Virus genome (UHGV): UHGV-0093339
Length of the DNA: 31,149 bases
Origin: a virus
Reading direction: 5' to 3' (one strand)
The notes under the pieces are model-generated. The model saw only the letters and a list, made by a program, of their open reading frames with translations. It was not told the DNA's origin and searched no databases. Position 1 is the stretch's first letter. Each line of letters opens with the position of its first letter. Position numbers and translations under genes: made by a program. This document shows, piece after piece, positions 17,099 to 24,690 of the stretch.

Positions 17099-17175
17099 GT
17101 GGCATTAGCTCAGTTGGACAGAGCAACCGCCTTCTAAGCGGTTGGTCGCAGGTTCGAATCCTGCATGCCACGCCA
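17099..17175 (+). tRNA. tRNA-Arg (anticodon TCT)
   Basis: Cloverleaf folded by hand: 7-bp acceptor stem gtggcat/atgccac, D-arm gctc-agttggaca-gagc, anticodon stem accgc/gcggt with loop cttctaa (anticodon TCT at 17133-17135), T-arm gcagg-ttcgaat-cctgc, discriminator G and encoded CCA. Confidence 0.85.
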
Positions 17176-22479: not shown

Positions 22480-23142
22480 TCACATCACCCTGAAGCCGTT
22501 GCATTTACGTAAAAAATCGCAGATATAGCCCTTCATTTTTTCTTGCCAATCTCGATCATTCCCATTGCACCAACCATCAGGTGGAGTCCAGTTTTCTATC
22601 AGAGCAGCCATTTTCTTTGCTTTCGTCGGAGTAGCTGTTGCGGTATCACATACGACCCAGTACATAACCGGATGTCGCCACGGGAATCTTTCGGGACCAC
22701 CAGGATATAAACTTTTTTCCTTGCTGTACCGGTGAAACTCCGCCATCACATCGTCAATGGTGACGCCAAGAACCATCTTGCTGTCTTTACACCACTTGAT
22801 GAATTGCCCTGGCGACGGCCAGAACGGAGACTCACTGGCGCGGGCGTGGCGCATACCAGCAGAAACCTGTTCACGGGTTCGGATCCCCCCTTCGGCAAAC
22901 GCAGCAATCCACTGCTGTTTTGCAGCAACTTCCTGCTCTGGCGTCTTCAGGTTGGTTACCACTGCCGCCGGAAACAGTTGTTTCAGCTGTTTGAAAAGGG
23001 CATCAACAAGCCTCTCTGCTGACATGTTCACCACGTTGTCATTGTTGGTGTACTGATGCTCATAACCTGACATGCGAGAAAGGGCTTCTCCGTCACGGTT
23101 TTGTATCGCGGTAAAAACGTTGTTCACAAGAAATCCTCCCAT
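22480..23142 (-). CDS. replication protein P homolog (helicase loader)
   Basis: Segment QLFPAAV...QQWIAAFAEGGIRTREQVSAGMRHARASESPFWPSPGQFIKWCKD parallels lambda P (...QWVLAFRENGITTMEQVNAGMRVARRQNRPFLPSPGQFVAWCRE) from memory; start overlaps the O-like gene. Confidence 0.75.
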   Translation of the reverse strand: MGGFLVNNVFTAIQNRDGEALSRMSGYEHQYTNNDNVVNMSAERLVDALFKQLKQLFPAAVVTNLKTPEQEVAAKQQWIAAFAEGGIRTREQVSAGMRHARASESPFWPSPGQFIKWCKDSKMVLGVTIDDVMAEFHRYSKEKSLYPGGPERFPWRHPVMYWVVCDTATATPTKAKKMAALIENWTPPDGWCNGNDRDWQEKMKGYICDFLRKCNGFRVM

Positions 23143-23939
23143 GCTTCAGGGCTGTTCCAGTGCGGAACGTTGTTATCAGGTAATGTTGATTGCTTCTGTC
23201 TGCTAATCTGCAGCCGCCTTGCCAGCTTCTGCTCCCACTGTGCCTGATGGTATGCCTTACCCTCAGCCATCCAGTAAATTCTGAACTCTGCAAGTTCCTG
23301 TGCCGTTGGCAGACTGTCCAGGTAGATCCCCTGCAATGAGCTTTTCCGAAGAAAGTCATCTGATGGCTGCCATTGTTCATGCATGACAAATTTGCCTAAT
23401 TGCCCTGGCCCACCAGGAGGAACAAAGTTATTCATCACGGCGTTGTTTGCGCCGGGGTCATGATGCACAGAATCCCCGTTTTTTGTCCTGCTCTCCCTCT
23501 CTTGGTTAAATGACTGGTTATATGACTGGTTCTGGATCCCGTTTTTGGGATCATTCAACATCCCGTTTTTGGGATCATTCAACATCCCGTTTTTGGGTAT
23601 ATTCCCGTTTTCGGTAACATTACCGTTTTCGGGTTCATTGCCCCCCTCCCGGTTGCCTTTAATGTTCCCGTTTTTGGTTATATTAAGAGAGAAAACCCGC
23701 ACTCTTTTTGTCGCTCCCTTTCTCTCTCCGGTATCTGAAATAAGCCCCATTTTCATGAGCGATATAAGCCCGGCCTGCACGGTTTTTTTATTCAGGCAAG
23801 TGTCTTTAACGAGGCGTTCTATGCTGGGGTAGCAGAGGTTATATTCATCGGCTCTGTCAGCCATCGAGAGCAGTATGAGCTTTAATGATGAGCTACCTGG
23901 ATCTGTCTCCCAGGCCCAATCTGTTGCATGTCTGCTCAT
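23124..23939 (-). CDS. replication initiator, lambda O-like
   Basis: ORF-track; GGAG RBS; N-terminal HTH-like region; central peptide repeats (PKNGMLNDPKNGMLNDPKNG) encoded by the DNA iterons at 23536-23684; immediately upstream of the P homolog. Confidence 0.65.
   Translation of the reverse strand: MSRHATDWAWETDPGSSSLKLILLSMADRADEYNLCYPSIERLVKDTCLNKKTVQAGLISLMKMGLISDTGERKGATKRVRVFSLNITKNGNIKGNREGGNEPENGNVTENGNIPKNGMLNDPKNGMLNDPKNGIQNQSYNQSFNQERESRTKNGDSVHHDPGANNAVMNNFVPPGGPGQLGKFVMHEQWQPSDDFLRKSSLQGIYLDSLPTAQELAEFRIYWMAEGKAYHQAQWEQKLARRLQISRQKQSTLPDNNVPHWNSPEAWEDFL
23536..23684. repeat. candidate replication origin: iterons with core CCCGTTTTTGG
   Basis: atcccgtttttgggatcattcaac at 23536-23559 and again at 23560-23583, then degenerate copies (cccgtttttgggtatatt, ccgttttcgg twice, ttcccgtttttggttatatt), all inside the O-like gene. 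Confidence 0.6.
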
Positions 23940-24250: not shown

Positions 24251-24305
24251 GAATAGATATGAAAAGACCGCCGGATGACGGTCTACAGAGGGTTGTGGCT
24301 GGATA

Positions 24306-24536: not shown

Positions 24537-24572
24537 AGCTATTGCCTGATATTTATTTCAGATAATAAATAT

Positions 24573-24635
24573 TCACCCATAAGGTAACAAAAATCAAGGA
24601 TAGTTACCCATGGGGTGCATTTACCTGTTGGGTAA
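24573..24635. promoter_or_regulatory. OR-like operator cluster, three dyads between the divergent Cro-like and CI-like genes
   Basis: Sites at 24573-24587 (tCACC-cataa-GGTAA), 24604-24618 (TTACC-catgg-GGTgc) and 24621-24635 (TTACC-tgttg-GGTAA); a leftward TTGATT -35 candidate at 24597-24592. Confidence 0.6.
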
Positions 24636-24690
24636 TATTGCTTTAAATTGAATCATCTACTGATTCATATATGAGGCGATTTTCCAGAAA

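Follow-up and report, generated by a model that had tools for sequence, protein, structure and literature searches.

In phage lambda and in the Stx phages 933W and P27, the central part of the initiator gene, flanked by the sequences for the DNA-binding N-terminal domain and the C-terminal domain, contains iterons with internal dyad symmetry. The same layout is found in the virus genome UHGV-0093339 (31,149 nt; this whole stretch of DNA is hereafter the window), where a repeat array at 23536-23680 occupies the linker-coding part of a replication initiator gene. On sequence grounds, this array most probably represents the origin iterons of a phiV10-type (Uetakevirus-like) prophage, placed within the gene of their own initiator. 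The likeness to lambda and the Stx phages extends to the number and size of the iterons (four to six or more, of ~16-19 bp), and the spacing is about two helical turns in lambda (20-24 bp) as in the window (18-24 bp). The units themselves are alike, lambda ATCCCTCAAAACGAGGGAT standing against ATCCCAAAAACGGGAT here, with arms that are 3 bp closer in the window. In both lambda O/P and the window the initiator's stop codon overlaps the start of a P-type loader gene (ATGA). Varying iteron number changes protein length in the Stx phages, where two extra iterons add 13 amino acids (aa) to O (PMC7466680), and does so here as well. In lambda and the Stx phages the most important iterons are those closest to the AT-rich side (PMC7466680), a polarity matched in the window, where the best units lie beside a second repeat. 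Other features set the window apart from lambda: its N-terminal domain is HTH_36 whereas that of lambda is Phage_rep_O, its C-terminal domain is DnaT-like and not of the lambda O type, and where lambda has a 40-bp strongly AT-rich (A-rich) block the window has a 12-nt repeat at 61% AT.

Origins have also been inferred from sequence in phages P22 and L, whose genes 18 contain four ~20-bp repeats and six copies of TGTCCAACGGA, respectively (10.1101/2020.10.05.325894). Inferring an origin from repeats inside distantly related initiator genes is accepted practice (10.1101/2020.10.05.325894), and the present case fits it. There, as here, each initiator has iterons of its own in its coding region, the proteins being distant relatives or unrelated; the gp18 proteins of P22 and L are paired with a DnaB-type helicase (gene 12), whereas the partner in the window is a P-type loader. 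The 11-bp iteron of phage L, TGTCCAACGGA, resembles units of the phiV10-type family such as AGTCCCAACAACGGAAC in locus L121. Phage L gp18 may itself belong to the HTH_36 initiator family.

DnaA-oriC and iteron plasmids (RepE, pi, TrfA) have an array of double-strand sites beside a short-repeat unwinding element that the initiator also contacts in single-stranded form (PMC4081077). The window follows this logic, with a site array beside a short-repeat candidate unwinding element, but its initiator has no AAA+ domain and no Rep_3/WH1-WH2 match in Pfam. The window contains no DnaA boxes, which fits a DnaA-independent origin. In iteron plasmids, including Rep_3 replicons of the RepA-RepE kind, the origin lies upstream of the rep gene, whereas here the iterons are inside the coding sequence. 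The probable origin described here is of a well-known kind, and its arrangement is ordinary apart from the DnaT-like single-stranded DNA (ssDNA)-binding domain in the initiator. Our literature search returned no paper on this origin or its motif; the original epsilon15 and phiV10 genome papers lay outside that search and may already mention it.

A repeat array inside the initiator gene

Tandem Repeats Finder reported a repeat at 23536-23597 with a period of 24 (2.6 copies, 100% match) and another at 23585-23639 with a period of 18 (3.1 copies). A repeat search gave six registered copies, starting at 23536, 23560, 23584, 23602, 23620 and 23665, with identities to the 24-mer of 100, 100, 75, 67, 71 and 67% in that order. 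The array at 23536-23680 therefore comprises two perfect 24-bp units, a near-perfect third and three degenerate ones, spaced by 24, 24, 18, 18 and 45 nt. It lies inside a minus-strand open reading frame (ORF) of 271 aa at 23124..23939, corresponds to gene nt 256-404, and encodes NIPKNGMLNDPKNGMLNDPKNGIQ. A preliminary description of this DNA, made by inspection, had proposed two perfect 24-bp copies and at least four degenerate ones at this place, within the coding sequence of an initiator and encoding a repetitive linker, and the tandem-repeat check that it suggested, together with the ORF assignment, bears out each of these points (two copies at 100%, four at 67-75%). Strand and polarity have to be corrected: the gene runs along the minus strand, so that reading it from its start one meets the degenerate units before the perfect ones, which adjoin the 12-mers of the second repeat. 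The array had also been placed directly upstream of a P-homolog gene. A P-type gene does follow the initiator, but the array lies ~400 nt upstream of it.

The repeats are significantly clustered. The core CCCGTTTTYGG, allowing at most one mismatch, has 8 matches in the 31-kb window against 0.98 expected, none of 100 shuffles reached 8, and 7 of the 8 matches fall within 23475-23677. Read in gene orientation, a good unit is a small palindrome, ATCCC-AAAAAC-GGGAT (ATCCCAAAAACGGGAT), and the ATCCC/GGGAT arms are present in three of the six units. The units are listed below in gene orientation; polymorphism was scored across 48 haplotypes of the 816-nt form of the gene, one register-shifted haplotype being left out.

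23665..23680, minus strand: iteron 1, the most promoter-proximal unit, degenerate; TTCCCGTTTTTGGTTA on the plus strand; core nearly invariant in the 48 haplotypes
23636..23664, minus strand: decayed spacer, possibly a dead unit; a hot spot of single-nucleotide polymorphism, with most of the polymorphism at gene nt ~290-300
23620..23635, minus strand: iteron 2; TTACCGTTTTCGGGTT on the plus strand
23602..23617, minus strand: iteron 3; TTCCCGTTTTCGGTAA on the plus strand
23584..23599, minus strand: iteron 4; ATCCCGTTTTTGGGTA on the plus strand
23560..23575, minus strand: iteron 5, a full palindrome within a perfect 24-bp unit; ATCCCGTTTTTGGGAT; no polymorphism in the 48 haplotypes
23536..23551, minus strand: iteron 6, a full palindrome and the last unit, adjoining the second repeat; ATCCCGTTTTTGGGAT; no polymorphism in the 48 haplotypes
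23499..23534, minus strand: second repeat element; CAGAACCAGTCATAT AACCAGTCATTT AACCAAGAG in gene orientation; 12-nt period, 61% AT
23472..23488, minus strand: isolated degenerate copy, downstream of the 12-mers; ATCCCCGTTTTTTGTCC on the plus strand

The core of the isolated copy at 23472-23488 varies among near-identical relatives (AAAAACGG / AAAAGCGG / AAAACCGG). Because the core itself is polymorphic, we did not count this copy as functional; it is probably a decaying, non-functional iteron.

Two minor features were noted at the best units. On the plus strand, arms of adjacent iterons (GGGAT...ATCCC) together with the T-run of the unit after them make up terminator-like hairpins at 23546-23565 and 23570-23589. 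We rejected them as independent features, since they are probably a by-product of those arms and the T-run, although as antisense hairpins they might hinder antisense transcription across the origin. Three GATC (Dam) sites, at 23535, 23549 and 23573, fall within 42 bp, one on an arm of each of the best iterons. An adenine methyltransferase gene stands just upstream of the initiator gene in Vibrio phage Her and in Acinetobacter phages AB1 and AP22, and the iterons there mostly lack GATC.

The repeats compared across a family of initiators

As every period in the window is a multiple of three, the key question was whether the repeats are DNA elements or simply a repetitive protein linker. We assembled homologues by tblastn against phage records, from six annotated loci and from four scans of viral contigs with the N-terminal domain, which gave 235 complete genes in 39 N-domain clusters at 90% identity. 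Defining an array as an 8-mer repeated at least 3 times within 300 nt in gene nt 200-700, we saw that 34 of the 39 clusters have one. Applied to controls, the definition picked out 2/37 and 2/37 upstream segments, nothing at locus nt 700-1200 and 8 of 760 shuffles.

The spacing of neighbouring copies is 17-26 nt, mostly 22-23 nt, in 16 of the 34 array-bearing clusters, and identical DNA units consequently stand in different reading frames and encode unrelated peptides. Burkholderia phage Bcep176, for example, repeats AACAGTCCCAAA every 22 nt in frames 2, 0, 1 and 2. Some arrays contain inverted units (loci L097, L098, L201 and L223). The units are palindromes of one general type, TCCCAAA/TTTGGGA, with examples in Bcep176 (GTCCCAAATTTGGGAC), Acinetobacter phage AB1 (ACCCAAATTTGGGT), Edwardsiella phage GF-2 (ATCCCAAAATTGGGAT) and the loci L210 (GTACCAATATTGGTAC) and L136 (CCCCCAAAAACGGGGG). 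The cores differ between N-domain lineages (TCCC, TACC, CCCC, GCAGGTGCA). Out-of-frame periods and inverted and palindromic units would be unexpected for a protein repeat and would be expected for the binding sites of a dimeric winged-helix protein. Together these comparisons show that the repeats are DNA-level elements and not a mere protein repeat.

The N-domain and array behave as a module with changing partners. Among the 39 clusters the module is joined to a DnaT-like C-terminal domain in 9, to a lambda-O-like one in 1 and to others in 29; the gene that follows is P-like in 14 clusters and encodes a DnaB-like helicase in 8.

Variation among close relatives points in the same direction for the best units. 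In 80 viral contigs whose N-domain is 99-100% identical to that of the window, the AATGATCCCAAAAACGGGAT unit is present in 1-5 copies, 18-nt units have been gained or lost and the 12-mers number 2 or 3. Protein length among these near-identical relatives ranges from 263 to 295 aa, and this copy-number polymorphism indicates that the encoded linker tolerates changes in length. Within the 48 haplotypes, none of 35 third-codon positions in iterons 4-6 and the 12-mers (gene nt 343-447) is polymorphic, compared with 34 of 176 in the flanking parts that encode the N- and C-terminal domains (Fisher p = 0.0018). Polymorphism is concentrated in the spacer at 23636-23664 and in the isolated copy at 23472-23488. 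Across the array as a whole, core and non-core sites do not differ significantly (5/78 versus 10/75 polymorphic, p = 0.18), and the frozen-site signal is confined to the three best iterons and the 12-mers. Codon choice is also skewed: the core Gly codon is GGG in 5 of the 6 units, compared with 18.5% in the other phage genes of the window (p = 0.0013).

Natural domain exchanges

Two phages provide natural domain swaps. In Edwardsiella phage GF-2 (L005 1501-2343) the N-domain is 57% identical to that of the window by tblastn (54% over a 93-residue alignment), and three ATCCCAAAATTGGGAT units lie at the same gene position as the window array. Over its C-terminal 144 residues the GF-2 protein matches lambda O 156-299 at 62% identity (E = 2e-67), and the next gene is a P gene; this is the only one of the 39 clusters with a lambda-O C-domain. 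In this hybrid the array therefore has exactly the position of lambda's ori with respect to the P-interacting domain. GF-2 lends direct support to the lambda ori arrangement put forward in the preliminary description. This arrangement has iterons between the DNA-binding and C-terminal domains and a P-type loader next.

The second swap runs the other way. Phage TL-2011b (L003 1949-2773, minus strand) keeps the flanks and a homologous DnaT-like C-domain while its N-domain is unrelated, and its gene contains no iteron unit of the phiV10-type family. It has instead two 28-nt repeats built on the palindrome GTAACGC-N5-GCGTTAC (GTAACGC(N5)GCGTTACAAAAGGAGT), at gene nt 149-176 and 358-385, 209 nt apart, which may be the binding sites of its own initiator. 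Across these exchanges the type of array travels with the N-terminal domain, which suggests that iteron specificity is linked to that domain.

The initiator protein and its partner

The two genes concerned are the following.

23124..23939, minus strand: initiator gene, 271 aa; HTH_36 at aa 18-67, repeat-encoded linker at ~aa 86-150, DnaT-like C-domain at aa 180-265
22480..23127 (ORF to 23142), minus strand: lambda-P-type helicase-loader gene, whose ATG overlaps the initiator stop (ATGA)

Pfam assigned an HTH_36 winged helix to aa 18-67 of the 271-aa protein (1.8e-10) and a DnaT domain to aa 184-252 (1.1e-15), and its best PHROG is phrog_1032, 'replication initiation protein' (1.4e-108). Residues 180-265 align to residues 85-170 of E. 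coli DnaT (E = 7e-21; PDB 9zbt, 6aep, 4ou6). DnaT mutations at Y127, W128, K133, F135, K143 and R146 impair ssDNA binding (PMC4132743), and all six positions are conserved in the initiator, as Y222, W223, K228, Y230, K238 and R241, with Y230 at the position of F135. In the preprimosome the C-terminal domain of DnaT forms a helical filament on ssDNA, for which a parallel with DnaA has been drawn (PMC13377028).

The preliminary description had called the protein O-like. This stands for function and architecture but not for sequence, in which the C-domain is DnaT-like instead: BLASTP found no significant similarity to lambda O, hhalign gave a probability of 1.8%, and PF04492 (Phage_rep_O) has no match at E <= 10 while scoring 5.7e-36 with lambda O itself. 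These negative BLASTP, hhalign and permissive Pfam results rule out membership in the lambda O family, and with no homology detected the lambda analogy rests on architecture.

We also considered whether the protein is a DnaT orthologue, as its database annotation 'primosomal protein' might imply, and rejected this because only the C-terminal domain matches. The alignment covers DnaT 85-170, leaving the N-terminal oligomerisation domain and the PriB-binding linker of DnaT unmatched, and the N-terminus of the initiator is HTH_36; the protein is a DnaT-domain fusion. Relative to E. coli DnaT, the N-terminal domain is thus replaced by a sequence-specific winged-helix domain. DnaT is placed at forks by PriA/PriB, whereas localisation here would be by iterons, and its partner is DnaC whereas the initiator is paired with a P-type loader.

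The loader belongs to the lambda-P family, as had been proposed (Pfam Phage_lambda_P, 3.4e-46; 33% identity to lambda P), but it is truncated in the window after ~aa 169.

A second repeat beside the last iteron

The second repeat begins directly after iteron 6 in gene orientation, and Tandem Repeats Finder registered it at 23503-23531 with a 12-nt period. The number of 12-mers varies: phiV10 (L001 2362-2409) has one extra unit, encoding NQSY, and a protein of 275 aa compared with 271, and one IMG/VR haplotype is likewise extended. The element contains one polymorphic site in the 48 haplotypes.

A homologous element recurs across the family, which we described from printed sequences since automatic tandem scoring performed poorly. 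In most clusters the last iteron, which is also the most palindromic, is followed by C(A/G)GAA(C/T)C and then by 2-4 more copies containing GAAYC at 9-13-nt spacing, and these repeats stand in different reading frames. Examples are CAGAACCAGTCATATAACCAGTCATTTAACCAAGAG in the window, CAGAACCAGTCATTAGAACCAGTCATAGAACCAAG in Vibrio phage Her with copies in different frames, four copies of GAACAGTAG in Bcep176, and GAATCTTTCAAAGAATCTATCAATAGAATCTAAAAATAAAAA in L121, L210 and L223. The 50 nt after the last iteron reach 70-78% AT in several lineages. In the window, AT content is 61% in the 36 bp that follow the last iteron and 50% overall, and these 36 bp are ~1.4 standard deviations less stable than the local mean. 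We looked for a strong AT-rich unwinding block beside the iterons and discarded the idea, as the nearest-neighbour stability profile has only a mild dip there. The second repeat is nonetheless a candidate counterpart of the lambda AT-rich tract, and thus a candidate site of unwinding or ssDNA loading.

A proposed route to initiation

From the repeats, their position, their conservation as DNA, their linkage to the N-domain and the domain homologies, we infer the following scheme for binding, unwinding, helicase loading and firing. Rightward-type early transcription from the immunity region would yield the initiator and, by translational coupling, the P-type loader. The N-terminal winged-helix domain would bind the ATCCCAAAAACGGGAT palindromes as dimers, most strongly at units 4-6, and build an O-some-like complex. 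This would bring several DnaT-like C-domains near the 12-mer (GAAYC) element at 23499-23534, where the DNA would open and the DnaT-like domains would capture a single strand. The P-type loader would then deliver host DnaB.

A bolder version of this scheme, which we regard as speculative and somewhat unlikely, treats the initiator as a miniature DnaA: iteron-bound winged-helix dimers would tether DnaT-like domains that polymerise on one strand of the GAAYC element, opening and holding the origin in place of a classical AT-rich element and passing the strand to P-DnaB. If this were true, a ssDNA filament of replication restart would have been recruited by a phage for sequence-specific initiation, and the second repeat would be a strand-specific loading signal common to initiators with differing C-domains.

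Genes upstream of the initiator

The initiator gene is preceded by a small gene, a cro-like gene and, in divergent orientation, a repressor gene with two HTH domains. Two regulatory features were noted among them.

24562..24590, minus strand: site resembling a sigma-70 promoter, TTGTTA-17-TATTAT, ahead of the cro-like gene; 9/12 consensus match
24265..24284, minus strand: tR1 analogue, a terminator-like hairpin that separates the cro-like gene from the small gene preceding the initiator

The number of promoter-like matches does not exceed that in shuffles, so the evidence for a promoter at 24562..24590 is weak; the site is a candidate analogue of pR and would transcribe through the origin. The site of the hairpin at 24265..24284 is annotated in phiV10 as a putative rho-independent terminator.

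Alternative explanations

Several points weigh against reading the array as origin iterons. The initiator has no detectable homology to lambda O and would be O-like by function and architecture only, and we found no published experiment on this origin or on any member of the family. The weak AT bias after the last iteron counts against a simple melting element, and within 2 kb the stability minimum falls in the immunity-region promoter tract at 24546-24672. The absent polymorphism at iterons 4-6 and the 12-mers has to be read with ancestry in mind: the copies share it, so gene conversion could contribute, and the haplotypes share it too and are not independent samples. Finally, the loader has lost its C-terminal third in the window, and this copy of the system may be inert.

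This last point leads to the alternative that survives best. It is quite possible that the array in this particular element is an inactive relic, its origin unable to fire with a loader that lacks its C-terminal third. The loader shares every residue with phiV10 P as far as ~aa 169, after which a foreign, DUF7739-like tail of 51 aa takes over. Its Pfam match is limited to profile positions 2-130 of 162, and in comparison with strain ML35 and phiV10 the window lacks ~1.45 kb (the 3' end of P, a DUF1064 gene and hypothetical genes). We looked for the junction, at ~22640, as a contiguous stretch in 5,426 complete E. coli genomes and 50,697 phage records and found it in none of them. Yet viable phages have an identical initiator gene and identical iterons, all of them intact here, the chimeric ORF is in frame, and it is an assumption that the missing part is needed in this P subfamily. 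A co-resident phage could also supply a loader. The origin is probably intact in cis but, with the C-terminal third of the loader lost, may be silent unless complemented by a helper.

We consider it improbable that the units bind the initiator for autoregulation, copy control or phage exclusion while the true origin lies elsewhere, for example at 24546-24672. Such roles have precedents, since plasmid iterons also serve copy control and the lambda ori region carried on plasmids gives an inhibition phenotype towards related phages (PMC3349717), and stability within 2 kb is lowest in the tract at 24546-24672 and not beside the iterons. That tract, however, lies between the divergent repressor-like and cro-like genes and holds the promoter-like site, so its AT-richness is expected. 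In addition, the GF-2 hybrid places the array exactly where the proven ori of lambda lies, and the second repeat that follows the last iteron across the family, with its high AT content in several lineages, resembles an unwinding element.

That the repeats are a slippage-generated low-complexity linker (KNG/NDP) with no function as DNA is highly improbable: all periods in the window (24, 18) are multiples of 3, the encoded linker tolerates different lengths and recent duplication alone would account for the two perfect 24-bp copies, but the 22-23-nt periods of relatives read one DNA unit in three frames as unrelated peptides, which largely refutes the idea, some units are inverted and units are palindromic at the DNA level, third-codon positions are frozen (0/35 versus 34/176), and where the N-domain has been exchanged the array is gone although linker and C-domain stay.

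Distribution and uses

Read as origin iterons, the array locates the probable origin of the replication module of phiV10-type phages and of several hundred E. coli prophages. Phages phiV10, phiv142-3 and PAS61 match the segment at 98-99% identity, and 388 of the 5,426 complete E. coli genomes contain it at >=80% coverage. None of the records that we inspected annotates an origin, and the initiator is labelled 'primosomal protein' or 'DnaT-like ssDNA-binding domain-containing protein'.

The comparison also defines a broad family of such modules in phages of Escherichia, Edwardsiella, Vibrio, Acinetobacter and Burkholderia, with an origin grammar in which palindromes of the TCCCAAA/TTTGGGA type are followed by GAAYC short repeats. 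This grammar could serve for annotating origins, for predicting the replication incompatibility of prophages and for designing reporter phages or vectors based on phiV10. By combining an origin-binding domain with a DnaT-type ssDNA-filament domain, the initiator makes a simple test case for the parallel between DnaT and DnaA that was recently put forward.

Outside the replication module, the prophage carries a tRNA-Arg gene (anticodon TCT) at 17099-17175 on the plus strand, between the structural genes and those of the terminase region.

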